Source: Candidatus Krumholzibacteriota bacterium
Lineage (GTDB): Bacteria; Krumholzibacteriota; Krumholzibacteriia; LZORAL124-64-63
Assembly: GCA_022711765.1 (NCBI GenBank)
Contig: JAKLEB010000002.1
Span: 689,726-753,725 of the forward strand
DNA: 64,000 nt
Direction: 5' to 3'
Below are positions 3,888 through 34,419 of this stretch, piece after piece (the stretch's first letter is position 1; the number at the start of each line of letters is the position of its first letter). Under the pieces are notes generated by a model. The model saw only the letters and a list, made by a program, of their open reading frames with translations, was not told the origin of the DNA and made no database searches. The translations under genes and the position numbers were made by a program.

Positions 3888-6113
3888 TCAGATCTCGGCC
3901 AGGTCGTCGTCGTCCAGCGGCAGCACGTCGGACGCGGTCACGCCGACTGCGACCTGCCGGGGCGCGGCCTTGGCCGCCGGCTTCGCCGGGGCCTTGGCCA
4001 TGGCCGCGTGAGCCGCGGCGGCCGGCTTGTGCGTCACGACGGACCGGTGCGCCGCGGCCGAGGGGCGCCGTGCCTTGTTCGCCGGGGACCTGGTCGCCTG
4101 GGGCGCGCCGTGCGACGCGGGCGCTTTCGCGACCACGTCGCGAACCTTGGCGGCTTCGCCGTAGGTCAGCTGGCGCAGGCCCTCGACCGAGGTCTGCACC
4201 AGGCGCGCCTGGCTCTCCAGATCCTTGCTCGCGGCAGCCGACTCCTCGGCGCTGGCCGCGTTGGTCTGGGTCAGCTGGTCGAGGCGGGTCATGGCGGTAT
4301 TGATCTCGCCGATGCCCTCGGCCTGCTCGTGGCTCGCCGACGCGACCTCGCCGACCAGGCGCTTGACCTCGTCGACGCTGGTCGTGATCTCGGCGAGGAT
4401 CTCGCCGACCTGCTCGGTCGCCTTGACCCCGCCGTCGGCGCTCTGCTGGCTCGCCTCGATCAGCTGGGCGGTGTTGCGCGCCGCCTCGGCGCTGCGCTGG
4501 GCCAGGTTGCGGACCTCTTCCGCCACCACGGCGAAGCCCTTGCCGGCCTCGCCGGCGCGCGCCGCCTCGACCGCGGCGTTCAGGGCGAGCAGATTCGTCT
4601 GGAACGCGATCTCGTCGATGGTCTTGAGGATGCGCGCCGTCTCGTCGCTGCTGCTCTTGATCTCGCCGATCACCTTCGAGAGGCGGTCCATCGCCTCGAC
4701 GCCCTTGCGGGCGGCCGCCGCGGCATTGGCGGTCACCTGGTCCGTCGCGGTGGCGTTGGTCGCGGTCTGCTGGGTGACCGAGGACATCTCCTGGAGCGAC
4801 GCGGCGATCTCCTCGAGCGCCGCAGCCTGCTCGCAGGCGCCGTCGGCCATCATCTGGCTCGAGCTCGCGACCTCGATCGACGAGTTGCCGACCTGGGCCG
4901 ACGCGCGGTTCAGTTCCCCGGACAGGTGGCCGATCTGGCGCGTGACCCCGGAGGCGACCAGGTACCAGAGGAGGCCGGCGAGCACGAGCGCGACGCCGGC
5001 GGTGACCAGTGCCGCGACGGTGTTGGCGCGGCCGAGGGCGGTCACCTTGTGCTCGGCGGCCATGAACTCGGCTTCGTAGGAGCCGGCGCCGATGATCCAG
5101 TCCCAGGGCGCGAAGTAGGCGACTCGCGCCACCTTCATGCGCGCCGCGGATTCGCCCTCGTTCTTCCAGGGGTACCACTGCTCGGCGAGGGTCCCTTCGG
5201 GCTGAGCCTTGGCCTTGGTGATCATCTCCTGGATGAACAGAGCGCCGTCCTCGTCCTTCGCCTGCCAGACGTTCTCGCCGTCACGAGCGCCGCCCTTCGA
5301 GATCACGTAGTTGCCCTGGCTGTCGAGGACGAACACGTAACCGGTCTGGCCGACCTTGACGTCCATGATGGACTGGCGCAGCGCCGTCGCGGACTCCAGC
5401 GGCACGCCGAAGTAGTTGATGCCGACCACGTCGCCGGTCGCGTCCTTGATGGGCTCGTAGGCGGTGATGTACCAGCGGTCCACCACGTACGCCTTGCCGA
5501 TGAAGGTCTTGCCGCCCAGGACGGACTGGACCACGGGGTTGGGCGCGCCGTCGGGATTCACCGCGGGGATGTAGGTGCCGATCGCGCGGGTGCCGTCCTC
5601 CTTGAGGACGGACGTGCACACGCGGAGCATGTCGCCCTGGACGTTCATGCGCTGGAAGATCGTCGCCGTGCCGCCGACGAGATCGCGCACCTCGTCGACG
5701 ATCGGGCTTTCGACGCCGGGGCTCTCGTTCTGGCCCAGCCATTCGTCGCCGACCAGCAGCTTGGGCAGTTGCACCTGCGTGGCCTGCTTGGTGGCCTGGT
5801 TGACGGCGTTCCAGGTCGCGTAATCGGCAGCGAAGGTGACCACGCCGCGGGAGGCGATCGCATCGCGAGCCACGGCGAGGCCGTCACGGACGTTGTCCTC
5901 GAGGACGGCCTGCTGGGTGGTGCACATCGCCCGGATGCCCGTGACGATGTGGTCCAGGTCGGCGAACGCCAGCGTCCGGCATTCCTCGGCCGCAGCCACC
6001 TTCATCTGGTTCTGCTTCGTGATCACGACGCCGATGATGACCGCCAGGGGGACCACCGTGATGGAGATGCCGATCAGGAGCAGGCGACTCCGCAGGGAGA
6101 GACGCGACCACAT
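3888..6113 (-). CDS. methyl-accepting chemotaxis protein with periplasmic dCache-type sensor, HAMP and MCP signalling domain
   Basis: Start [21 protein letters not shown] (TM1), large periplasmic domain, second TM, then the classic MCP signalling region ([30 protein letters not shown]). Ends with a long Ala/Pro/Lys-rich tail ...DDDDLAEI. Confidence 0.85.
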
Positions 6114-13057: not shown

Positions 13058-13741
13058 CTAGAACGGCTGCCCCAGCGCTTCGCAGAGGAACTTCACGAAC
13101 GGCGCCGAGCGGCGGAAGACCGTCGCGACGCGCTCGAGCGCGTCCGCGGCGAGCACGTCGCGGTGCGTGAGCGATCGCCAGACCCCGTATTCCTTCCAGC
13201 GCAGCTCGCCGGCCTGCGGGTGGTCCTTGGCGTAACCGGCGGGCACGCGCTGCAGCTGCTCGCCGAATCGCTCCAGGCTCGCCACGCCGGGGTCGTCGAG
13301 CACGGCCTGCCAGCGGGCGGGCCGCGCGGCGATCGCCTCGCGGATCCGGCTCAGCGCGGGCGCGTCCGGCTGCCAGACGCCGGCGGCGGCCAGGCACCCG
13401 CGTGGTTCGAGGTGGACGTAGAAGCCGGGCGCGTGCGCGTCGCGTCCGTTCTCGTGGCGGAAGTGGATGCCGGCGTGCGTCTTGTAGGGGCTCTTGTCCG
13501 CGCTGAAGCGGACGTCGCGGTGGATGCGGAAGAGCGAGCCGCCGCTCGGCCGCGGGTCGGCGTCGAAGTGGGGGCTCACCGCGCGCAGATGCGGGCCGAA
13601 GTCCACGATGAAGCGCAGCGCCGGCGTCTTGACGTGCTCCTCGTAACGGTCGCGGTTCCGCTGGAACCAGTCGCGGTCGTTATGCGCGGCGAGATCCTCG
13701 AGGAACGCGAAGAGCGCGGGCGTGAAGTACGGTCTGGCCAT
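13058..13741 (-). CDS. DUF2461 (TIGR02453) family protein
   Basis: N-terminus FLEDLAAHNDRDWFQRNRDRYEEHVKTPAL and HRDVRFSADKSPYKTH match DUF2461. Confidence 0.7.
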   Translation of the reverse strand: MARPYFTPALFAFLEDLAAHNDRDWFQRNRDRYEEHVKTPALRFIVDFGPHLRAVSPHFDADPRPSGGSLFRIHRDVRFSADKSPYKTHAGIHFRHENGRDAHAPGFYVHLEPRGCLAAAGVWQPDAPALSRIREAIAARPARWQAVLDDPGVASLERFGEQLQRVPAGYAKDHPQAGELRWKEYGVWRSLTHRDVLAADALERVATVFRRSAPFVKFLCEALGQPF

Positions 13742-13745
13742 GCGG

Positions 13746-14516
13746 TCAGGGCTCCTTCTCGTCGTCGATCGCCTCGAAGCGGCGGTCCGGGTAGGCGACG
13801 ACCAGCGTGCCGTCCACCGCGGTCAGGCCGCAGGCGGTCTCGTCCGGCAGCGTGAAGTACCGCGTGACGACGCCGCCGGCGAAGCCCTGGACCACGGCCG
13901 CGCCGGTGGTGTCCGCGCCGAGCGCCCAGAGCCAGCCGTCGAGCCAGGTCACGGCCCGCACGCCGGTCGCCGGGTCGAACAGGCTGAGCTCGTGAGTCTC
14001 CGGCAGGCTCGATTCGCCGGCGAATCCCGGCCCGTACTGCACGGTCGTGTAGGTCGTCGTGCCGGGGTCGCGGTAGATGACCACGAAGGAGTCGACGTCG
14101 GCGCGCCAGGCGATCCCGCAAGCCAGCGCGTGGCTGCCGACGAAGGGGTCCGCCCGGGTCCAGCCGATCTCGCCGACCGGCGAGACGGCGAAGAGCTGGC
14201 CGGTGCCGCGCGCCTGGAGATAGAGCGACTCGCCGTCGCTGCAGGCGGCGAGGTACCCCATCCCGTTCAAGCCGAGGCCGAAGCGGCCCTCCGGGAAGCC
14301 CCCCGGCGCGAACTTGAAGAGGTCGATCTGGCTGCCGCCGTGGCCGGACCGATCCTCGTTGGTCGTGAACAGATAGCCGCCCAGCGCCGCCACGTCGGCG
14401 ATCGGGTCGGTCAGGGTGTCGCGGTCGGTCGCGATCTCGTCCTCGTCGTCGCAGCCCGCGAGGACCAGGGCGACGGCGACCGCGGCCGCGGTCGCCAGCA
14501 GTTCGCGGTGGGACAT
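13746..14516 (-). CDS. hypothetical lipoprotein
   Basis: Lipobox LVLAGCDDEDE; 256 aa, GC3-biased ORF; no recognisable family. Confidence 0.5.
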   Translation of the reverse strand: MSHRELLATAAAVAVALVLAGCDDEDEIATDRDTLTDPIADVAALGGYLFTTNEDRSGHGGSQIDLFKFAPGGFPEGRFGLGLNGMGYLAACSDGESLYLQARGTGQLFAVSPVGEIGWTRADPFVGSHALACGIAWRADVDSFVVIYRDPGTTTYTTVQYGPGFAGESSLPETHELSLFDPATGVRAVTWLDGWLWALGADTTGAAVVQGFAGGVVTRYFTLPDETACGLTAVDGTLVVAYPDRRFEAIDDEKEP

Positions 14517-14725
14517 GGCAGACCTCCTGGGACACCATGATTGAACACGCGTCCGCCGCGCGCGTCAACCCGGGCGCGGCCGCCGCCCGGACCGGCGGGC
14601 TCGCCCCCCGGCGCAACCGACTTTCCGCCCACGGTGCGCTGTGTTATCTTGCGAGGTCCTTGCGGGCCCGGCCCGCGCGACTGTCGGTGCCGCCCTGGGC
14701 ACGCCCGGAAAGGACCTCGAGGACC

Positions 14726-16210
14726 ATGGCCGAGATCACCAAGCGCTCGGAGGACTACAGCCGCTGGTACCTGGACGTCATCCGTGAAGCCGAGCTGGCG
14801 GACAACTCGCCCGTGCGCGGCTGCATGGTCATCCGGCCGAACGGCTACGCGATCTGGGAGAACATCCAGCGCGATCTCGACGACCGGTTCAAGGCGCTCG
14901 GCCACGTCAACGCGTACTTCCCGCTGTTGATCCCCAAGAGCTTCCTCGCCAAGGAGGCCGAACACGTCGAGGGCTTCGCCAAGGAATGCGCCATCGTCAC
15001 GCATCACCGGCTCAAGCAGGTGACGCACCCGGACGGCAGGGTCGACGTGGTCCCGGACCCCGAGTCGAAGCTGGAGGAGGAGTACGTCATCCGCCCCACC
15101 AGCGAGACCGTGATCTGGGACATGTACCGCAAGTGGATCCAGAGCTACCGGGACCTGCCCCTGCTGATCAACCAGTGGGCCAACGTGATGCGCTGGGAGC
15201 TGCGCACGCGGATGTTCCTGCGCACGACGGAATTCCTCTGGCAGGAGGGGCACACCGCCCATGCGACGGCCGCCGAGGGGCGCCAGGAGACCTTGCAGAT
15301 GCTCGAGACCTACCGCCGGTTCGCCGAGGAAGCCCTGGCGATGCCGGTCGTCGCGGGCACGAAGACCGCCAACGAGCGCTTCGCCGGCGCGGTCGAGACC
15401 TACTCGATCGAGGCGATGATGCAGGACAACAAGGCGCTGCAGGCGGCGACGAGCCACGACCTCGGCCAGAACTTCGCGAAGGCTTTCGACGTCAAGTTCC
15501 AGTCGGCCGAAGGCCAGGTCGACCACGTGTGGGCCACGAGCTGGGGCATGTCGACGCGCATCGTCGGCGCCCTCATCATGACGCACAGCGACGACGATGG
15601 CCTGGTGCTGCCGCCGCGGATCGCGCGCGCCAAGGCGGTCGTCGTGCCGATCTGGAAGAACGACGAGGAGAAGGCGGCGGTCTGCGAGGCCGCCCGCCGG
15701 CTCGCCGCCGAGCTGCGCCCGGCGATCGGCCCGGTCCACGTCGACGACCGCGACAACCTGCGCCCCGGCTGGAAGTACAGCGAGTGGGAGCGCAAGGGCG
15801 TGCCGCTGCGCCTGGAGATCGGGCCGCGCGACGTCGCCGGCCAGACCGCCGTCTTGAAGTCGCGCCACGACCGCGCCAAGACCACCGTGCCCTTTGCGGG
15901 GATCGTGGCCGGCGTCGAGGCCGAGCTGGCGCGCATCCAGGACGACCTGCTCGCGCGCGCCCGGCGGCGCCTGGTCGCCAACACGTGCCGGGTCGACACC
16001 TGGGACGATTTCGTCGACCTCTTCGAGAACCGCGGCGGCGGCTTCGCGATGTGCCACTGGTGCGGTGACGGCCACTGCGAGCAGATGGTGCAGGACAAGA
16101 CCAAGGTCACGATTCGCAACATCCCGTTCGAGCGGGACGAGACTCCCGGCGCGTGCGTGCACTGCGGTAAGCCGAGCCGCGGCCGCGTGCTGTTCGCGCA
16201 GGGGTACTAG
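14726..16210 (+). CDS. proS: proline--tRNA ligase, archaeal/eukaryote-like type (no INS editing domain, C-terminal Zn-binding domain)
   Basis: Class II aaRS motifs, anticodon-binding domain and C-terminal HWCGDGHCE...CVHCGKPS zinc motif; 494 aa. Start at MAEITKRSEDYSRWY. Confidence 0.9.
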   Translation: MAEITKRSEDYSRWYLDVIREAELADNSPVRGCMVIRPNGYAIWENIQRDLDDRFKALGHVNAYFPLLIPKSFLAKEAEHVEGFAKECAIVTHHRLKQVTHPDGRVDVVPDPESKLEEEYVIRPTSETVIWDMYRKWIQSYRDLPLLINQWANVMRWELRTRMFLRTTEFLWQEGHTAHATAAEGRQETLQMLETYRRFAEEALAMPVVAGTKTANERFAGAVETYSIEAMMQDNKALQAATSHDLGQNFAKAFDVKFQSAEGQVDHVWATSWGMSTRIVGALIMTHSDDDGLVLPPRIARAKAVVVPIWKNDEEKAAVCEAARRLAAELRPAIGPVHVDDRDNLRPGWKYSEWERKGVPLRLEIGPRDVAGQTAVLKSRHDRAKTTVPFAGIVAGVEAELARIQDDLLARARRRLVANTCRVDTWDDFVDLFENRGGGFAMCHWCGDGHCEQMVQDKTKVTIRNIPFERDETPGACVHCGKPSRGRVLFAQGY

Positions 16211-16277
16211 CTTCCTTCGCGGTCGCCGCCGCCCGGGCGGGCGGCGCGGCGCCGGTGCGGGCACGGGAGGTACGGCC

Positions 16278-18188
<1,911 letters not shown>

Positions 18189-25772: not shown

Positions 25773-28700
25773 ATGAATCACCATACCAAGATCACGAGAC
25801 TACTTCTTGTTCTCACCGTCATGGTCGTCATCTCCAACCTGCCAGCCATGGCCGCGACGGAACAGGTCAAGCGCCAAGCCATCGATTCCGGCCTCGTCTG
25901 GCTCGCCGTCAACCAGACCCGCGCTGGCGACGAAGGATACTGGCCCTATGAAAACACCGGCACCCTGGCGGCCACCGCTGCCGCGGCGCTTGCCTTCATC
26001 GAGGAAGGATACCTGCCGGGCGCCGACGTCGTGATCAACGAAGTCAACTATGGCGACGTCGTCGGCTACGCCCTCAACTACATGTTCAACCGTGCCCTCG
26101 TCGACACGCGGTTCGGCGTGGAGTATGCGGTTTATGAGCGTTATGCCGAGGACTACAACAACGACGGGATCTACGGCGAGGGCAACGACCAGGCGATCTA
26201 CTTCGAACCTGGCGATTCCAATCGCCGGCTCTACACGACCGGCATCTGCACGCCCGTCGTCTACGCGCTCGGCGTCGCGCTGGGTCGCGATACGGTCATC
26301 GGCCGCGGGACGGCAGTCGTCGAGAACATGACCTATGCCGAGGCCATGCAGGACCTCATCGACTGGTTCAGCTTCGCGCAGGTCGAACCGAACCTGGGCA
26401 ACTGGCGCGGCGGCTGGCGCTACGACGCCAACTACTCGAGTTCGGACAATTCGACGGCGCAGTGGGGAGCGCTACCGCTCCTGTACGGTATCTCCTGGGG
26501 TCTGGGCACGCCGAACTACGTCTTCGCTGAACTCGAACTCTGGGTGAACTACATCCAGAACGCCAACGGCGGCTCCGGTTATTCCTACCCCTGGGAGTAC
26601 GTCAACGTGTCCAAGACGGGCGGCTTGCTCCTCCAGATGCGGGCGATCGGCAGGCCGCTCGAGCATGAGCGGGTCCAGGCCGCGATCAACTACATCAACA
26701 GCTACTGGAACACGTATCCGAGCGGGACGTGGTACGGAAACCTGAATCACCCGTACGCGATGTGGGCAGTCTACAAGGGACTCGAGATCTATGGTCTGAC
26801 GGACGTCATCATGTCCTTCAACCATCTCGTCATGATCGGCACGGACATGCCGGCGGCTCCCGGCGGTTTCACGATCGGCTACGAGCAGGATCCCTCCTTG
26901 TCTCTGGCCGGCGACTGGTACTCCCATTACTCCGATTACCTGGTGAGCATCCAGAACGCCAATGGGAGCTGGAACGGTTACGATTACTGGACCGGTTATC
27001 TCGCCTCGGCGTGGTACATCAACATCCTCAACGCCGGCGGCAACATCCCGCCGCCCGGCAATCCCTACATCGAGATGACCTCGACCTTCGCAGGTCCCTG
27101 CCCGTGGCATGGCGACCCGATTCTGCACGATGTCCACTACTTCTATGGAACGCCGGGAAACCCCGATCCCGAGGTACCGCCGGCCGAGGACGTCGAGGTC
27201 GTCGTCACGCTCAACGAACACATGACATTCGTGGCCGCGAGCGGCGCGGGCGATTACGATCCCGCCACCCATACCGTCACGTGGGAGGTGGGCCAGTTGC
27301 CGGACGGCAGCGAGGGCTTCGAATCCGTATCTTGCGTGATCGCGGATACGGCGCCACCGGATGCTGACCTGCGCACCTTGGCGGACGTGAGCGCGAGCAA
27401 TGTCCCCTGGTACGAGTGGGGGCACGCCGAGACCATCGTCCACACCTGCGCGACCCCGGTACCCGACGAATGCGTCTGGCAGGAGTGGACCGACCTCGCC
27501 GAGCACGCGGTATCCCACGCCACCGCCTGGGGCGACTATGACAACGACGGCGATCAGGACCTCTTGATCGCCGGCTCGGGGCTCAACCGGCTCTACGAGA
27601 ACGTCGGCGGCGTGATGGTGGAGGTCGTCGGTTGGTGCGACGACGCCGAGCCCTCGTTCGGCGCGGTGTGGGGCGACTACGACAGCGACGGCGACCTCGA
27701 TCTCTACGTGGTCAACGCGCTGGTCGCAAACGCGCTGTATCGCAACGAAGGTGGCGCTTTCGTGCGCGTCGATGCCGGGGATGCCGCAGACACCGGCGAC
27801 GGTTACGACGCAGCCTGGGCCGACGTCGACAACGACGGCGATCTCGACCTTTATCTCTGCAACCGCGACGGCACGAACCACCTTTACCGCAACGATGGAG
27901 GCGCGTTCGTAGACTGGGGCGGCGTGACCGCAGTCAGCGGCACCAGCCGTGGCTGCGCGTTCGCGGACTACGACAACGACCAGGACCAGGACCTCTACGT
28001 GAGCATGCTGGGCGCCAACTACCTGTTCCGCAACGATGGCGGGGTGTACGTCGATGTGTCGGCGCCGCCGGTGAACGACCTGGGCCAGGGCAAGGGCGTG
28101 GCCTGGGGCGACTACGACAACGATGGCGACCTGGACCTGTACCTGGTCAACACGGGCGGTGCCAACAAGCTGTTCCGCAACGACCTGCCGGAGTTCTTCA
28201 CCGACGTGACGGACGACCTCACGGGCGACGCGAACAACGGCCGGGCCTGCGCCTGGGTCGACTATGACAACGACGGTTGGCTCGACCTGTTCCTGACCAA
28301 CATCTCCGGCTGGAACCGCCTGTTCGAGAACATCGAGGGCGCCTTCGCGGACAGCACGTGCGGCGCGCTGGCCGTGACCGCGGACCTACCGTCGTGGGGC
28401 TGTGCGTTCGCGGACTACGATGCAGACGGCGACCAGGACCTGGCGATGGCGGTCGCCAGCCTCGCTGATCCGAGCAAGCTGTTCCGCAATGACCGCTACG
28501 AAGTGCCGATCGCGAACTGGCTGCAGATCGATCTACGCGGCGTCGCGTCGAACCGCTTCGGCGTGGGGGCGAAGATCTTCGTCGACAACGGCGAGTTCAC
28601 CCAGCTGCGCGAGGTGTCCGCGAGCGGCAACTACCTGAGCCAGGCGCCGCTGACGGCGAGCTACGGCGTGGCGGCGGCGACGCGCGTCGACGTCACGATC

Positions 28701-29087
28701 GTCTGGCCGTCGGGCCTGGTGCAGGAGCTGCAGCAGGTGCCGGTGAACCAGCGGCTGGTCGTGCCGGAGCAGGCCGGTGCGTTGCCGGTCGGCGAGCTGC
28801 CGGTGCCGACTCTCCTGGAGGTTGTGAACTACCCGAACCCGTTCAACCCGAGCACGACGATCGAGTTCGCGCTGCCACGGGCTTCGCGCGTCGATCTGCA
28901 GATCCTCGATGCGCGCGGGAGGCTGGTGAGCGCGCTGCTCACCGGGGAACGCTACGCTGCGGGCCGGCATCAGGTGCAGTGGTTGGGGCGTAACGCCGAG
29001 GGCCAAACCGTGCCTTCGGGAGTGTATTTCTACCGGTGTGTCGCGAACGGGGAGTCCGTGACCGGAAGAATGGTGTTGTTGAAGTAA
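25773..29087 (+). CDS. CRTAC1-family secreted protein: N-terminal prenyltransferase/terpene-cyclase-like alpha-toroid repeats, FG-GAP/VCBS repeats, ASPIC/UnbV domain, C-terminal FlgD-Ig-like domain
   Basis: Signal peptide; repeated WGDYDNDGDLDLY... FG-GAP units; RFGVGAKIFVDNGEFTQLREVSASGNYLSQAPLTASYG (UnbV_ASPIC); C-terminus NYPNPFNPSTTIEFALP...GVYFYRC. GAGGAGGA RBS. Confidence 0.85.
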   Translation: MNHHTKITRLLLVLTVMVVISNLPAMAATEQVKRQAIDSGLVWLAVNQTRAGDEGYWPYENTGTLAATAAAALAFIEEGYLPGADVVINEVNYGDVVGYALNYMFNRALVDTRFGVEYAVYERYAEDYNNDGIYGEGNDQAIYFEPGDSNRRLYTTGICTPVVYALGVALGRDTVIGRGTAVVENMTYAEAMQDLIDWFSFAQVEPNLGNWRGGWRYDANYSSSDNSTAQWGALPLLYGISWGLGTPNYVFAELELWVNYIQNANGGSGYSYPWEYVNVSKTGGLLLQMRAIGRPLEHERVQAAINYINSYWNTYPSGTWYGNLNHPYAMWAVYKGLEIYGLTDVIMSFNHLVMIGTDMPAAPGGFTIGYEQDPSLSLAGDWYSHYSDYLVSIQNANGSWNGYDYWTGYLASAWYINILNAGGNIPPPGNPYIEMTSTFAGPCPWHGDPILHDVHYFYGTPGNPDPEVPPAEDVEVVVTLNEHMTFVAASGAGDYDPATHTVTWEVGQLPDGSEGFESVSCVIADTAPPDADLRTLADVSASNVPWYEWGHAETIVHTCATPVPDECVWQEWTDLAEHAVSHATAWGDYDNDGDQDLLIAGSGLNRLYENVGGVMVEVVGWCDDAEPSFGAVWGDYDSDGDLDLYVVNALVANALYRNEGGAFVRVDAGDAADTGDGYDAAWADVDNDGDLDLYLCNRDGTNHLYRNDGGAFVDWGGVTAVSGTSRGCAFADYDNDQDQDLYVSMLGANYLFRNDGGVYVDVSAPPVNDLGQGKGVAWGDYDNDGDLDLYLVNTGGANKLFRNDLPEFFTDVTDDLTGDANNGRACAWVDYDNDGWLDLFLTNISGWNRLFENIEGAFADSTCGALAVTADLPSWGCAFADYDADGDQDLAMAVASLADPSKLFRNDRYEVPIANWLQIDLRGVASNRFGVGAKIFVDNGEFTQLREVSASGNYLSQAPLTASYGVAAATRVDVTIVWPSGLVQELQQVPVNQRLVVPEQAGALPVGELPVPTLLEVVNYPNPFNPSTTIEFALPRASRVDLQILDARGRLVSALLTGERYAAGRHQVQWLGRNAEGQTVPSGVYFYRCVANGESVTGRMVLLK

Positions 29088-29126
29088 CGCACCGATATCA
29101 GAGTCGATCGAGTAATCCTCTCCTTC

Positions 29127-29158
29127 CCGGGCCTGGAGAAGCAGTACTCCAGGCCCGG
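29127..29158 (+). terminator. hairpin terminator downstream of the CRTAC1-like gene
   Basis: ccgggcctgga-gaagcagtac-tccaggcccgg is an 11-bp perfect stem 40 nt after the stop codon. Confidence 0.45.
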
Positions 29159-29750
29159 TAGGCAAATCAGATCTGATGAGACACGTCAGATGGTGATCTA
29201 TGAGAGACTTCGCGCCGGAGAAGAAGAGGGGCGCAAAGGCAGTAAACAAAGCGAGGAAGAGGCACGAAATGGATGGTTCTGGTCGATGGCGCGAGTACTT
29301 CGCTTGGAGCACACGTGGACGCAAAGTGCCCGGCGATAGTGAAACTCGAAAAGCGGACGATCCAAAACGTCTCCATGAGGCGAACGCATACGCCAAGCCG
29401 ACCATGACGAATTTAATTTGAATGACTGCGAATCGCACTTACGAAAGTAATCCGCGTCGTACAAACTTGGACAGGCGGCTTATCGAGCTGACCATTCCCG
29501 CTCGTTCGATACATCTCACATCCAGTCACCGAAACAGCCGAGAACTAAGGAGATACCGCTATCGTTGAATCGCGAAGCCAACGGTCACTTGGTTTGGAGG
29601 CTTCCGCCGTTTGCTGTTGTGGTATGAGCGACTGATTGGAACGTACCAGGAGTTGTTTAATGGCGCGTGTGCGTTTGTTGAGCTTTCGAGATATACGAAA
29701 TGGGCGCTGGGTACGGAATTGTACTTATGTAATTAATGAGAGGTACTAAG

Positions 29751-32700
29751 ATGTCACGTCGAAGCATCGTTCCCTGCGGTTCTTTAAGCGTAGGATTCGG
29801 GTACTTCTGGTTCGCGCTAGCCGTAGTCGCACAGACGCCCTCGCCGATGGATTTGCCGCCTATATTGCCGGTGGAATGGTCGATACCACAATCAATAGAA
29901 GTCTACTACGACGAAACAATAAGCTCACAAAGCAATCCGTTCGGTGATCCCGCTACGGTGCGCGCGGCGATCGAACAGGCTATTGAAGAGTGGAACTTCG
30001 AGTTGCTAGAAGCAGGGGCGTGGCTGAGTTTCCATCGCAATAACGCTGAGATGTACCTCGGCGGTAGCTTGCCTAGTCCCGCATTTCATGGAGTTGTGTT
30101 TAGTTATGGGACGCACTATATGGACGAAGATGGACAGCCAGACCTCTTTGGGTGGACTTACTACAGCCCACGGAATGTCTGCGGCGCAATGGACTGGAAC
30201 GTCGTTGAAATCAGTGACGGGTGGGATAGAAGCTGCCCGGCGATGTTGCGTGCGGTAGCGCTTCATGAATTGGGACATGTGCTGGGGCTTGGCGATCATC
30301 CGGATGATCTTTCTTGTCTCGACGACCAACTAATGTGTAACGCGTATTTAAATTGTGAGATGTACCAGAATCGATTCATCGATCCAATCACGCTGACCGC
30401 GCTCCATTGCATATACGGATGGGGTGAGTGCCCAGGTCAGAATGTCAGCGTAGATATGTGGTACTATCTAGACGGTCCTCACACAATTCACCTCGGCCGT
30501 TGTAGCTGCCAACCGATTCCTAGCGGTGGTAAGTCGAAGGAGGTTACACACGCAGAAATCGCTCGCGCAAGAATACGCGATACAATTTATGAGTTGGCCA
30601 TTAGCCAAGATGACAGCCTCTATATGCCGTTTGCTTACGTGGGGGAGGAGGAGTGGGTTGATGACATCTACGGCCACGCTTTCGCGACATCCCGTGAGCA
30701 CGCGAAGGTGAGAATGCGATATTATAATAGCGGCGTGCTAGTTGACGAGGCTAAAACGTATCAATGGGTAGACGTTGAGGCGGCCGGTCTCGGTGTTGTG
30801 CCGGAATTGCCGTGGTACGTAGACGGCTTTCAGGGCGGACCGTTTGACACGACTTGTGTAGGTTATACAGTCCGGAACAACACCGCAGCGGGGTTGGAGT
30901 GGCGCGTAGCGCTCGATGCGCCGTGGCTAGAGATAGGGCCGGATTATGGAATCCTATCGGCCGGCCAAGAGGTCATGCTAGACCTCTGTCTCAACAGTGG
31001 CGCGGACGCACTCACCTTGGGCGTACACGAGGGGATCCTCACGTTTACGGATGTTACGGCCGGCTATTCGTTCACCCGTAAGTATCAACTATACGTAGAG
31101 TTGTGTCCCCCCTCTCCGCTACCCTTGTGCGATAACGTTGTGATCGAAACTCCTGTCGGAGGTAGCGGTGAGGCTGTCCTCCAGATCGGTAACGATCTCG
31201 ATGCGTGCCAGCCGTTGGAGTTCTCGATCACCACGGCCGTGCAGGGTGGCGCGGGGAGCAGTGTGGACGTCGAAGGAAGCACTGCGCTGGCAAACTATGC
31301 CAATGGACGCTATATCGGCAATGTCTTCGAGGTTGCGGAGAGCACCAGTATTCTGCAAATCGGTGCATATCTGAACTTTACGGGTAGCCGCCAGCTGAAT
31401 TTCGTGATCCTCGAAGCGCCGGTTCAGGCTGGCCCCTACCAGGAGATCTGCAGTCAGGTCGTCGACGTCGTTGGCAACGGCGAAGGGTTCTACGATTCGC
31501 AGCCGTTGAGCGTGCCGCTAGCTGAGGGGAAGTTCTACATCGTAGGTGTCGGCTGGACGGGCGGTAATATCACATACTACTGGGATACGGCTAGCATGCC
31601 CCACGCGGTCAGTTTTGGTCAGAAACACTACGGCTTCCGGTGGGATGGATATCCACTGCCAGGTACGGTACCCAGCCCGGCTTTCTACACCGCGAATTAC
31701 TACCAGCGTATAACAACGGAAAGCATGTGGTTGTGCGTCGTCCCGAACTTCGGGAGCGTTATTCCTGGCGGTCAGTTGGATGTGATCGTAAGTGTTTCGG
31801 CTGTTGGTCTGGAGGAAGGTATCCATCTCGGGAGCGTTCACGTTGCGACAAACGTCGGAGAATCGGAGCCTGATTCTATCCCGGTAGCCTTAGTTGTTGG
31901 ACTGACCTCAGAAGAGCCGGCATGTACGGTGGAACCAGATACGGTTCAGTTGACGATGCAGCCGGATTCGCAGCAGGCTGCAACCGTGACGGTCAGTAAC
32001 ACGGGTGAAGAGGCGTCGGTACTTCTGTACGTTTTGACGGTTCAGGGGAACGCGCTGCGACAAGCCGGACACGGCGCAAAAAACATCGCGGGCTCGACGG
32101 TTACCTGCGCGGAAACCGTCTATATGCCAGCAAGCACGGTTAATCTGCACTTCACAGTCTACAATGGCAGCGCGGATGACGAATGGCTGACGGACGTGAC
32201 GCTCGATTTCCCGCCGGGGATGTTCGTCAATTTGTCCACGAACTTTGTTGGTGGCTCCGTCGGGCCGATGGTTTCCAATGGAGCATCGGGAAACGGTGCA
32301 ATCGTTGCTTGGCACGGCGACAGCGGCGCACCGGATTACTACGGTGTGGTCCGAATGGGCGAATCGGCGACGGCCACCGTCAACGTCAGTTTCGCCGCGG
32401 ACCTCGCGGGCCTGCAGCAGATAGCGTACACGATTACCGGCGATCAGTGGGGCGATGCCCCGCACACGGTATCCGGCATGATCGCGCTACAATATGGTGG
32501 GTCGAGTATCGCGGTTCTGGCGCCCAATGGCGGAGAGAGACTTGCCATCGGGTCGCTGTACGACGTGCTCTGGACAACCACGGGCAGCCTGCCGGCGGTG
32601 AGGATCGATCTCAGTCGCAATTCGGGTGGCAACTGGGAACCCGTAGTAGCCAGCATACCCAATGGCGGCATTTACCCTTGGGAGGTCAGTGGATCGAGCG

Positions 32701-33269
32701 CGAATCAGTGCCTTTTCCGGGTCTCGAGCCCCGATCAGACCGTCAGCGATCAGAGTGACGGCGTCTTCGCGATTCATGACCCGGCACCCTGGCTACAGGT
32801 GAATCCGTCAAGCGGGATACTTGAGCACGGGCAGAGCCATGTGCTTGATCTCAACGTGGATACCACTGGGCTGACGGAGGGACAGTACCAAGCGTGGATC
32901 GTCATCGACCATAACGGGCAGAGCAGCCCTACCGTCTTACCCGTCGCTCTGGTCGTCGAACCCCCCAGTGGTGCGGAAGAGAGTCTCCCGGCAGTATTAT
33001 GGCTTGAGACCAACTACCCGAATCCGTTCAACCCTGTGACTACAATCCGCTTCGGCCTGCCATCCCCTTGTCCCGTGGTTCTGAGGATCTATGACGTTCA
33101 GGGCCGCCTCGTGCGTACACTCTGGACTGGCGACCTGCCTGCCGGTGAGCAAGAAGTGTTCTGGAATGGACGGGACGACAAGGGTCGGACAGTCGCATCG
33201 GGTGTCTATTTCTGCAGCCTCCGTGCGGGCCGGGAGTCTCGAACGACGAAGATGACGATGGTGCGATAA
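29751..33269 (+). CDS. secreted multidomain protein with N-terminal metzincin-type zinc-metalloprotease motif and C-terminal FlgD-Ig-like domain
   Basis: Signal peptide; HELGHVLGLGDH (HExxHxxGxxH); about 800 aa of beta-rich, unassigned sequence; C-terminus NYPNPFNPVTTIRFGLP...GVYFCSL. GAGAGG RBS. Low GC3, unlike neighbours. Confidence 0.8.
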   Translation: MSRRSIVPCGSLSVGFGYFWFALAVVAQTPSPMDLPPILPVEWSIPQSIEVYYDETISSQSNPFGDPATVRAAIEQAIEEWNFELLEAGAWLSFHRNNAEMYLGGSLPSPAFHGVVFSYGTHYMDEDGQPDLFGWTYYSPRNVCGAMDWNVVEISDGWDRSCPAMLRAVALHELGHVLGLGDHPDDLSCLDDQLMCNAYLNCEMYQNRFIDPITLTALHCIYGWGECPGQNVSVDMWYYLDGPHTIHLGRCSCQPIPSGGKSKEVTHAEIARARIRDTIYELAISQDDSLYMPFAYVGEEEWVDDIYGHAFATSREHAKVRMRYYNSGVLVDEAKTYQWVDVEAAGLGVVPELPWYVDGFQGGPFDTTCVGYTVRNNTAAGLEWRVALDAPWLEIGPDYGILSAGQEVMLDLCLNSGADALTLGVHEGILTFTDVTAGYSFTRKYQLYVELCPPSPLPLCDNVVIETPVGGSGEAVLQIGNDLDACQPLEFSITTAVQGGAGSSVDVEGSTALANYANGRYIGNVFEVAESTSILQIGAYLNFTGSRQLNFVILEAPVQAGPYQEICSQVVDVVGNGEGFYDSQPLSVPLAEGKFYIVGVGWTGGNITYYWDTASMPHAVSFGQKHYGFRWDGYPLPGTVPSPAFYTANYYQRITTESMWLCVVPNFGSVIPGGQLDVIVSVSAVGLEEGIHLGSVHVATNVGESEPDSIPVALVVGLTSEEPACTVEPDTVQLTMQPDSQQAATVTVSNTGEEASVLLYVLTVQGNALRQAGHGAKNIAGSTVTCAETVYMPASTVNLHFTVYNGSADDEWLTDVTLDFPPGMFVNLSTNFVGGSVGPMVSNGASGNGAIVAWHGDSGAPDYYGVVRMGESATATVNVSFAADLAGLQQIAYTITGDQWGDAPHTVSGMIALQYGGSSIAVLAPNGGERLAIGSLYDVLWTTTGSLPAVRIDLSRNSGGNWEPVVASIPNGGIYPWEVSGSSANQCLFRVSSPDQTVSDQSDGVFAIHDPAPWLQVNPSSGILEHGQSHVLDLNVDTTGLTEGQYQAWIVIDHNGQSSPTVLPVALVVEPPSGAEESLPAVLWLETNYPNPFNPVTTIRFGLPSPCPVVLRIYDVQGRLVRTLWTGDLPAGEQEVFWNGRDDKGRTVASGVYFCSLRAGRESRTTKMTMVR

Positions 33270-33493
33270 GGAGAAACATCGGCTAATACGGGCATTCGCC
33301 ATAGGAGGCGAACCTGACATCCTGCATCCTCGGCGGCGATGAGGAACAGGGAACAAGGAAGTAGGGCCGGCGACGTCCGACGGTTGCGGGTTGGCGCGGC
33401 GCTCGCTACCGTCGTCTGTCCGGCGCTGCCCGCCCGTCCTGTCTGGACCGCCTTCCTCCCCGAGGCGGTCGCCGTCGCCGAGGGAGGCCGCCC

Positions 33494-34087
33494 GTGAGAT
33501 TGCTCATGGTCGACAACTACGACAGCTTCACGTACAACGTCGTGCAGGCGTTGAGCGAGCTGGGGGCGGAGGTCGCGGTCCGGCGCAACGACGCGATCAC
33601 GCCCGACGAGGCCGCGGCCCTCGCTACGGCCGGCCTCGTGATCTCGCCCGGTCCCGGCGCGCCCGCCGACGCCGGGGTGTCGGCGGTCCTCATCGAACGC
33701 TTCGCGGGCCGCGTGCCGATCCTCGGCGTCTGCCTCGGCCACCAGGCGATCGTCGAGGTCTTCGGCGGCCGCGTGGCGCGGGCCGACCGCGTGATGCACG
33801 GCAAGACGAGCCCCGTTTACCACGACGGGCGCACGGTCTACGCCGGCCTCGGCAATCCGTTCACCGCGACCCGCTACCACTCCCTGATCGCCCGCGAGCA
33901 GGACGTGCCGGCGAGCCTAGAGATCTCGGCCCGCACCGCCGAGGGCGAGGTCATGGGCGTGCGGCACCGCGTGCTGCCGGTCGAGGGCGTGCAGTTCCAT
34001 CCCGAGTCGGTGATGACCGGGGAAGGTCGACTGCTGTTCGCCAACTGGCTGCGGCTCTGCGGGCTGGCGGCGGAAAGCCGGGCATGA
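33494..34087 (+). CDS. anthranilate/aminodeoxychorismate synthase component II (class-I glutamine amidotransferase)
   Basis: MVDNYDSFTYNVVQ..., catalytic GVCLGHQ and HPES motifs; GTG start with GGGAGG RBS. Confidence 0.85.
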   Translation: MRLLMVDNYDSFTYNVVQALSELGAEVAVRRNDAITPDEAAALATAGLVISPGPGAPADAGVSAVLIERFAGRVPILGVCLGHQAIVEVFGGRVARADRVMHGKTSPVYHDGRTVYAGLGNPFTATRYHSLIAREQDVPASLEISARTAEGEVMGVRHRVLPVEGVQFHPESVMTGEGRLLFANWLRLCGLAAESRA

Positions 34088-34419
34088 CCGGGGCAACGTT
34101 CGCGCTCTCTCGCGGGCGAGCACTGCGACGCCGTCCGGCTCGGCGGCCGAGTCCGTCCTGGCGGCAGGCAGTCGACAGGTGATACTCTGCGAGCGAGGAA
34201 TCCCGACGTTCGCGACGGCGACCTTCGTCCCGCCGGACATCGGCGCGGTTTCGGTCGCCAGGAGCCGGCGCCGCCCGCCGGCGGCGCGCGCTCGTGCGCT
34301 CCCGCCCTCGCGCTGTCAGCGCTGGCCGCAGGTCAGGACGGGATTATGGTGAAGATGCGTCCGGCGCTGGGTCGGCCAACGGCGCACGGGAGGTCCCGAG
34401 GCGGCCTGGAGGTGACGGC

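Follow-up and report, generated by a model that had tools for sequence, protein, structure and literature searches.

A low-GC islet at the trpE site of a Candidatus Krumholzibacteria genome, probably acquired horizontally, encodes a sorting-tagged metzincin-like protein

Results

Organization of the islet

We analysed a 64-kb stretch of contig JAKLEB010000002.1 (hereafter the window) from a Candidatus Krumholzibacteria genome of ~72% guanine-plus-cytosine content (GC). Between a CRTAC1-like gene and trpG, the window contains an islet of lower GC that comprises a decayed transposase gene of the IS5 family of insertion sequences (IS) and one intact gene, which encodes a large protein with a metzincin-like domain, a series of binding modules and a C-terminal sorting tag. 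We consider it likely that the islet (~29170-33364) was acquired horizontally from a donor of ~50-55% GC, that it replaced trpE, and that its product is a sorting-tagged, secreted zinc endopeptidase. The features of the locus are listed below by their position in the window, with the evidence for each in brackets.

29125-29160, + strand: GC-rich hairpin (CCGGGCCTGGAG-7 nt-ACTCCAGGCCCGG), ~40 nt past the stop codon of the CRTAC1-like gene (read from the sequence)
29219-29326, + strand: upstream piece of an IS5-family transposase relic (NCBIfam model NF033580 positions 109-147, E = 0.032, 13.8 bits)
29398-29712, + strand: C-terminal piece of the IS5-family transposase relic (NF033580 positions 169-255 of 258)
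29751-33269, + strand: gene for a secreted multidomain metzincin-like protein of 1172 amino acids (aa) (open reading frame (ORF), ribosome-binding site, homologue alignment)
29868-30440, + strand: metzincin-like catalytic domain, ~aa 45-235 (family motif, weak Peptidase_M10 match, PDB profile matches)
30798-31100, + strand: BACON/ASH-like Ig domain, ~aa 355-455 (HMMER matches, BACON-type repeats of protein P0003)
31224-31739, + strand: 170-aa jelly-roll lectin-like domain, aa 497-668 (family alignments, AlphaFold2 (AF2), Foldseek)
31899-32525, + strand: accessory beta module, ~aa 722-930 (matches to proteins P0069, P0080, P0110, P0114 and P0140, query positions 686-893)
32508-32903, + strand: Ig-like domain (~aa 925-1005) followed by BACON_2 (aa 1011-1056; BACON_2 E = 2.6e-11)
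33015-33266, + strand: C-terminal sorting domain of T9SS type A (T9SS, type IX secretion system) or FlgD_ig type, aa 1094-1177 (TIGR04183, FlgD_ig)
33270-33364, no strand: 3' flank of the islet, GC 0.56 (composition switch at ~33364/33365)
33365-33464, no strand: stretch of host-like GC, 0.76 (GC only)
33465-33497, + strand: trpE 3' remnant (...AVAVAEGGRP*) with stop TGA at 33495-33497, contiguous with trpG as in relatives
33503-34087, + strand: intact trpG/pabA-type glutamine amidotransferase gene (TIGR00566, 236 bits; GC at third codon positions (GC3) 0.93)

Composition of the islet

Along the window, GC falls from 0.70-0.77 in the flanks to 0.48-0.60 between ~29100 and ~33360. An earlier note, made from the sequence alone, had described a fall from about 70% to about 50%; the drop itself is borne out, while the islet average lies nearer 55% than 50%. 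With the 33 other genes of the window as the host reference, the metzincin gene (GC 0.565) has a GC3 of 0.632, compared to 0.923 +/- 0.035 in the reference (z = -8.4). Its GC3 stays at 0.48-0.77 along the full length of the gene, with 0.62-0.68 in the C-terminal tag. The third-position bias is therefore strongly reduced, from 0.92 to 0.63, rather than flipped as had been proposed. The tetranucleotide distance of positions 29001-33000 from the remaining window corresponds to z = 9.5-11, with the correlation going down to r = 0.49, so that the sliding-window GC/GC3 and tetranucleotide checks suggested in the note both set the islet apart.

The non-coding and IS-relic part of the islet has a GC of ~0.52, and codon choice alone is thus an insufficient explanation for the low GC. 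Furthermore, four other genes of the window encode proteins with NPFN...GxY tails, and their GC3 (0.86-0.94) is host-like, which means that the tagged secreted proteins do not constitute a low-GC class. The CRTAC1-like gene (25773-29087), with a GC3 of 0.86, is native, because its orthologues in relatives show the same slightly lowered GC (0.62-0.65); its lower GC is due to amino-acid content.

The islet occupies the site of trpE

We compared the window with the loci of three relatives (L093, L094 and L096) that contain an orthologue of the CRTAC1-like gene, 60-70% identical to it. In L096, the CRTAC1-like gene is followed, after 539 bp (4058-4595), by trpE-trpG. In L093, genes for CHAT, TPR and sigma-70 proteins (13372-17875) separate it from a trpE-trpG-trpD-trpC-trpF-trpB cluster, and the left flank (ADI-DUF6599-Fer4-DUF362) is conserved with the window. 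In L094, an M14 peptidase gene (13511-16513) follows. The presence/absence comparison proposed for the CRTAC1-trpG junction hence gave a uniform result, with the metzincin gene absent after the CRTAC1-like gene in all three relatives.

DNA homology to L093 and L096 ends at 29086, in the stop codon of the CRTAC1-like gene, and restarts at 33465, within the last 32 nt of trpE. From this point, blastn aligned positions 33465-33696 with L093:19835-20066 (80.6% identity) and with L096:6042-6273 (75%). The stop codon of trpE overlaps the start of trpG in both relatives. The break at 29086 together with the restart inside the 3' end of trpE indicates that the islet replaced this gene, a replacement that the earlier note had not recognised. 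Since two relatives keep trpE-trpG at the site and the window keeps the 3' stub of trpE, we conclude that trpE is the ancestral occupant. The preceding stretch of host-like GC (33365-33464) is possibly decayed trpE as well; protein alignment of this stretch with TrpE C-termini gave no significant similarity (z = 0.8-2.6). The TrpG of the window is 78-81% identical to those of L096 and L093, and its prolyl-tRNA synthetase (ProRS) is 84% identical.

On the left side, the hairpin at 29125-29160 is probably the terminator of the CRTAC1-like gene and the last host DNA. L096 and L093 contain a hairpin of different sequence at the equivalent position after the CRTAC1-like stop codon. The presence of a hairpin there in all three genomes places the left junction between ~29165 and 29219. 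An Rfam scan returned a chance miRNA match to this hairpin as its sole match and no Rfam element in the islet.

Other genes of the pathway are missing as well, with none of trpE, trpD, trpC, trpF and trpB found in the 64-kb window. The orphan trpG may mean that the organism is a tryptophan auxotroph, or that trpG serves as pabA. Between trpG and aroA we noticed a 46-codon fragment of a 3-deoxy-D-arabino-heptulosonate 7-phosphate (DAHP) synthase gene (34119-34256, + strand; containing ...VILCERGIPTF...), 52% identical to aa 226-271 of ORF L006:8878-9942 (E = 4e-7). In L093 and L006, trpD-trpC-trpF-trpB follow trpG, and the L006 DAHP synthase gene lies just upstream of aroA. That the genes found between trpG and aroA in relatives are gone from the window points to a second deletion beside the orphan trpG. 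A genome scan with AroA gave, among the matches listed, one Krumholzibacteriia locus (AroA 53% identical), which informs the operon order and not the junction.

The site 3' of the CRTAC1-like gene is a variable spot, with different content in every relative examined. The genes that the relatives have at this site show a host-like GC3 of 0.86-0.92.

A transposase relic adjoins the gene

Translation of the 648 bp between the CRTAC1-like gene and the metzincin ORF (29088-29735, nominally intergenic) revealed, in one frame, ...FGGFRRLLLWYERLIGTYQ..., which corresponds to the C-terminal piece of an IS5-family transposase (NF033580, E = 4e-8 to 8e-8; 32-33 bits, with the curated cut-off at 110). This piece is interrupted by an in-frame stop codon at 29566-29568 and has a GC of ~0.51, like the gene. 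The upstream piece, weak on its own, lies in a different frame and is colinear with the C-terminal piece on NF033580. The transposase gene is frameshifted and 5'-truncated, its first ~100 codons being gone. With a score below the NF033580 cut-off (33 against 110 bits) and without inverted repeats, it represents a relic and not an intact element. Its peptide had no match in plasmids and none in Pfam, and the islet DNA had no match in plasmid and phage collections.

We found no tRNA within the islet region. The earlier note had reported that no integrase, tRNA or direct repeats are visible; this holds for tRNAs and repeats, while a mobility gene, the IS5 relic adjoining the gene, had been overlooked. 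The IS may have played a part in the insertion or in the deletion of trpE. In this respect the locus resembles IS-associated genomic islets and IS5-family elements, where foreign single-gene cargo lies beside the remnant of a DDE transposase and a host gene is deleted. It differs from them in that the IS is a pseudogene truncated at its 5' end, at which neither inverted repeats nor a target duplication can be recognised.

Gene start and metzincin-like domain

The ORF of the metzincin gene spans 29736-33269 (1177 aa). The ATG at 29736 is an alternative start; the likely start codon is the ATG at 29751, behind a GAGAGG ribosome-binding site, in agreement with the 1172 aa reported initially. The public annotation starts at 29847 (Met38; 1140 aa) and drops the signal peptide. 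We favour the start at 29751 over the public one because of the homologue alignment and the ribosome-binding site. Read from the sequence, the N-terminus consists of MSRRS, a 16-residue hydrophobic stretch and VVA/QT, and this region aligns with homologues; it is predicted to be a Sec signal peptide.

The zinc motif, HELGHVLGLGDH (30264-30299), reads H177-E178-x-x-H181-x-x-G184-x-x-D187-H188. It represents the extended HExxHxxGxx(H/D) motif of metzincins (clan MA(M)), at aa 177-188, and is one residue off the HExxHxxGxxH motif first described, with Asp in the place of the third ligand and H188 next to it. H177, E178, G180, H181, L183 and G184 are invariant in seven family members. At the third-ligand position, the closest homologue, an ORF at locus L003, also has Asp (HEFGHALGLDD), and the five other members have His. 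A candidate for the Met-turn is M200 (QLMCN, 30333-30335), with LMC, MMC or LMS found in four of the six aligned members. In every family member a Met lies 8-25 residues past the zinc motif; the predicted local distance difference test score (pLDDT) of the AF2 model is <50 in this region.

All six family members matched Peptidase_M10 weakly (best E = 1.5e-6). Compared with the PDB, a family profile matched the matrix metalloproteinases (MMP) MMP-12 (E = 3.4e-5), MMP-3 and MMP-1 as well as karilysin, with E-values from 3e-5 to 3e-3. The AF2 model of the catalytic region (mean pLDDT 48.9) shows the order E-H-E-E-E-H(active site)-H of strands and helices, as expected for metzincins. A Foldseek search with this low-confidence model gave proMMP-9 as the top match (E = 0.03, template modelling (TM) score 0.25-0.32) and also snake-venom metalloproteinases. 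By sequence, the catalytic domain appears related to matrixins and is no member of them by the curated Pfam criterion.

An N-terminal motif containing Trp reads RWCP in most members and EWSIP in the window protein. The stretch around it (VEWSIPQ, aa 45-52, 29868-29890) lies just ahead of the first strand of the catalytic domain. A short cysteine-switch profragment has been described for mirolysin (PMC8259862), and the RWCP motif of the family is reminiscent of it; the Cys is a Ser in the window protein. By this analogy, latency control by the RWCP Cys, if present in the family, would be lost here.

Binding modules and sorting domain

In the full protein, Pfam matches were limited to BACON_2, the tag (FlgD_ig/Por_Secre_tail) and, at the zinc motif, a matrixin match below threshold. 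The BACON/ASH-like unit occurs in many repeats in large relatives (4-16 matched stretches, query positions 312-420), and the Ig-like repeat at ~aa 925-1005 aligns with the repeats of protein P0002. Other tagged proteins also contain the module of aa 722-930, placed after C25 gingipain-like and S8 subtilase domains.

Within the family, conservation is highest in the 170-aa jelly roll (YLNFTGxRxLNFVV...GWTGGNITYYW), which has no Pfam model and no sequence match in the PDB. At least 51 copies were counted among the proteins fetched, with up to three per protein, and the domain is seen in hundreds of large secreted proteins. AF2 predicted it as a jelly roll with a pLDDT of 94.5 and a predicted TM score (pTM) of 0.89. 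The best PDB match of this model is the lectin-like domain of Cwp84 (TM score 0.57, E = 4e-4, 14% identity). The Pfam model Lectin_like (PF18560) gave a weak match in 2 of 41 homologous domains (E = 0.0016) and none for the window domain. The predicted jelly roll hence resembles the Cwp84 lectin-like domain at the level of the fold only.

The C-terminal tag scored above the cut-offs of TIGR04183 (28.1 against 23 bits) and FlgD_ig (42.1 against 27), and below that of PF18962 (20.7 against 27). The FlgD-Ig-like tag is common to the metzincin protein and the four high-GC neighbours with NPFN...GxY tails, as had been noted before. Five tagged genes within 64 kb suggest that a type IX-like pathway is in use. 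A 78-nt direct repeat (71% identity) between two tag-coding regions was recognised as the conserved NPFNP motif and dismissed as an integration scar.

Homologues and possible donor

An exhaustive HMMER scan with aa 38-930 as the query returned 2185 proteins, including ones with only repeated Ig/BACON modules. The whole N-terminal module was present in six of them (P0035, P0037, P0039, P0044, P0045 and the 1237-aa L003 ORF), in a shared order of signal peptide, W motif, metzincin-like domain, Ig/BACON-like domains and 170-aa domain. Word-indexed searches, whether started from the full protein or from the family alignment, gave a full-length match only to the protein itself, all other matches sharing the tag or the Ig/BACON modules; it was the HMMER scan alone that brought up the family. 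A metagenome scan with the family alignment gave, among the matches listed, only unrelated metzincin domains with a generic HExxH.

The L003 homologue is 48% identical to the window protein over aa 175-1177. The tags of the two proteins are 64% identical, compared to 33-51% between the window tag and the host's other tags. With the islet-type GC3 of the tag, this indicates that the tag came with the gene. The L003 ORF (L003:3383-7096) is a mosaic: its first ~550 codons have a GC3 of 0.52-0.58 and are 17-33% identical to the window protein, while the remainder has a GC3 of 0.77-0.89 and is 52-78% identical. This single observation suggests, from sequence comparison, that the N-terminal part is exchanged within the family. 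The public call for this gene, P0034, starts at L003:5006 (residue 542), near the shift in GC3, so that the N-terminal half is left out.

There are lower-GC hosts in which this tag family is in use. The architecture and tag type of the window protein are also found in P0035, which comes from a 52%-GC contig, where a neighbouring gene has the same composition. P0039 is encoded on a 42%-GC contig beside a TonB-dependent receptor gene, and P0046 comes from Phaeodactylibacter.

Horizontal acquisition, as advanced in the earlier note, is well supported by the composition and by the synteny with three relatives lacking the gene. Its description as recent holds only relative to the split from relatives with 84% identical ProRS. 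A lower-GC donor with the same sorting system is indicated indirectly, by the GC3 of the tag, the 64% identity to the L003 tag and the 52%-GC contig of P0035; the recommended homologue search did not name a donor lineage, its best match being only 48% identical and in a high-GC contig.

The gene and its neighbours are identical in the metagenome-assembled genome GCA_035392125.1 of Candidatus Krumholzibacteria and in the JGI metagenome 3300009771. Both junctions fall within contigs measuring 0.7-1.5 Mb (NCBI, JGI), and the protein is recorded on seven contigs.

Discussion

We propose that ~29170-33364 arrived as foreign DNA, consisting of a decayed IS5-family IS and one intact gene downstream on the same strand. 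The islet would have entered after the lineage split from the sampled relatives and taken the place of trpE, of which the last ~30 bases remain, fused to trpG as before. The protein would be exported by Sec via its signal peptide and, upon recognition of its type A sorting domain by a type IX-like pathway of the host, cross the outer membrane. At the cell surface or in the medium it may then act as a zinc endopeptidase, with H177, H181 and either D187 or H188 as putative metal ligands, E178 as the general base and M200 in the Met-turn. Attachment to polymeric and perhaps glycosylated substrates would probably fall to the lectin-like jelly roll and the Ig/BACON-like domains. As the donor, an organism of ~50-55% GC with the same kind of sorting tag is probable. 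Read in this way, the islet is a clear example of horizontal gene transfer, though not an unusual one.

Several results weigh against this proposal. Regarding the activity, the zinc motif has Asp instead of His at the canonical third-ligand position (HExxHxxGxxD, then H), the family Cys of the RWCP motif is replaced by Ser, the full protein reaches only 16.7 bits and the domain 20.6 bits with the Peptidase_M10 model (PF00413), whose cut-off is 24, and the mean pLDDT of 48.9 makes the catalytic domain a poor model. Regarding secretion, no T9SS machinery (PorK/L/M/N, Sov/SprA, PorU/V) was found in the 10 large window ORFs scanned. Regarding the transfer, no donor or close homologue was found, the best non-self match being 48% identical and in a high-GC contig. 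No direct or inverted repeats beyond chance were found at the islet ends that would point to the mechanism of insertion. The relatives are only moderately close (ProRS 84%, TrpG 78-81%, CRTAC1-like 60-70%), which leaves the timing loose, and the two public records of the locus (L001 and L002), identical to the window over 23 kb, do not represent an independent population sample.

Other origins of the low-GC segment were weighed against the transfer. One could imagine a native gene whose low GC3 results from gene-specific codon selection, for expression level or for slow translation during export, and the N-terminal half of the L003 homologue, also low in GC3 inside a high-GC contig, might hint at a property of the gene itself. 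We give this next to no credence: GC is just as low in the adjoining non-coding and IS-relic DNA, the gene is missing at the locus in three relatives and a trpE remnant lies at the junction, the other tagged secreted proteins of the window have a GC3 of 0.86-0.94, and family members in low-GC contigs match the composition of their contigs. It is also very unlikely that an old resident gene was lost by the sampled relatives. Although the site 3' of the CRTAC1-like gene differs in each relative and is therefore prone to rearrangement, a gene of long residence would be expected to have taken on the host composition, from which the gene is 8 standard deviations away in GC3, and two relatives have trpE-trpG directly at the site whose trpE 3' stub persists in the window. 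A chimera of assembly or binning is barely conceivable; the sequence is of metagenome-assembled origin and the identical NCBI and JGI records may stem from one dataset, but both junctions lie inside 0.7-1.5 Mb contigs, the protein occurs on seven contigs, and the precise loss of trpE, its 3' stub staying fused to trpG, would be left unexplained by a chimera. As to the source of the DNA, a distant donor such as a member of the Bacteroidota, with the matching tag a general trait of T9SS cargo across the FCB group, seems rather unlikely to us. Most long family members look Bacteroidota-like, as exemplified by Phaeodactylibacter and by the 42%-GC contig with the TonB-dependent receptor, and over the N-terminal 480 aa no homologue exceeds 33% identity. 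However, the two most similar proteins (L003 and P0035) have the NPFNP/FlgD_ig tag and not the Bacteroidota-style tail of P0037, P0044 and P0045, and with its GC of 0.52-0.57 the islet is closer to the 52%-GC contig of P0035 than to the 42%-GC one.

With the horizontal transfer retained, the activity of the product deserves separate consideration. That the metzincin-like domain is degenerate and the product, rather than being an active protease, serves as an adhesin or binding protein at the surface is an alternative that we find doubtful and yet give appreciable weight. It would fit the change of the third His to Asp, the loss of the family-typical Cys, the deletion of a large loop present in other members and the fact that >75% of the protein consists of Ig, BACON or lectin-like binding modules. 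In addition, an NCBIfam model for T9SS-dependent inactivated M6-like metalloproteases exists, which the protein matches only through its tag. On the other hand, the protein retains H177, E178, H181, G184 and a Met downstream of them, snapalysin-type metzincins use Asp as a functional third ligand, and the same Asp in the closest homologue shows the change to be conserved rather than a sign of decay.

Known kinds include both horizontal islets and secreted metzincins of the T9SS type (karilysin and the KLIKK proteases, for example), while the protein family itself is uncharacterised. The KLIKK proteases of Tannerella forsythia are T9SS-secreted metzincins, whose genes form a strain-specific array missing in a close relative (PMC4404884, PMC5445135). 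They share with the window protein a signal peptide, predicted in the latter, a matrixin-like/metzincin domain and a C-terminal T9SS sorting domain, and the karilysin structures 2xs3 and 2xs4 are among the PDB matches of the family profile (E ~2e-3). The similarity is confined to the part from the zinc-site helix to the C-terminal helix, and the window protein differs by the Asp in the third-ligand position and by ~850 aa of Ig/BACON/lectin-like sequence before the tag. Furthermore, the host of karilysin and the KLIKK proteases belongs to the Bacteroidota, whereas that of the window protein belongs to the Krumholzibacteria.

With the matrixins (M10A, PF00413) the protein shares the HExGHxLGLxH-type motif and a Met behind it, and its strands and helices are predicted to come in the same order. 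Unlike them, it has neither an MMP-type prodomain nor a hemopexin domain, its score is sub-threshold, and Asp stands for the third His. In the snapalysin-type metzincins (MEROPS M7), small single-domain enzymes of Streptomyces, the motif is HExxHxxGxxD, with Asp as a functional third zinc ligand. The window protein and its closest homologue resemble them in this position, but no sequence relationship is detectable past the motif. Finally, a jelly-roll lectin-like domain alongside a surface protease is also found in Cwp84 of Clostridioides difficile, which combines a cysteine protease with a lectin-like domain (PDB 4ci7; PMC4089489). The two differ in that the identity is 14%, the TM score is <0.6 and the protease is of another class.

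While the current understanding of gene transfer and type IX secretion is unchanged by this case, it provides a cleanly delimited gene gain in a barely studied phylum, with mapped junctions, a mobile-element scar and an identified displaced host gene. It also indicates that cargo genes with a sorting tag can cross large GC gaps together with their tag. It also brings to light a large unannotated family that combines a metzincin with a confidently folded lectin-like domain; this domain lacks a Pfam model and merits a family definition. More speculatively, the N-terminal module of ~720 aa (metzincin, Ig/BACON, jelly roll) might define an undescribed family of tagged cargo and could be a cassette exchanged between lineages of the FCB group, an idea supported by the L003 mosaic. 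As trpE was replaced and trpDCFB and the DAHP synthase were lost at the locus, the gain of a protease and the loss of tryptophan synthesis might be two sides of one shift to external protein. We regard this combined scenario as a long shot. That trp and aro genes have decayed hints that this protein-degrading organism of digesters may be auxotrophic for tryptophan.

A last observation concerns the neighbouring CRTAC1-like gene. The N-terminal ~560 aa of its product (25773-27450) precede the FG-GAP/ASPIC part and recur alone in many tagged proteins of 620-740 aa. Some sources name these proteins as prenyltransferase/squalene-oxidase-repeat proteins, and the fusion falls outside the label CRTAC1.

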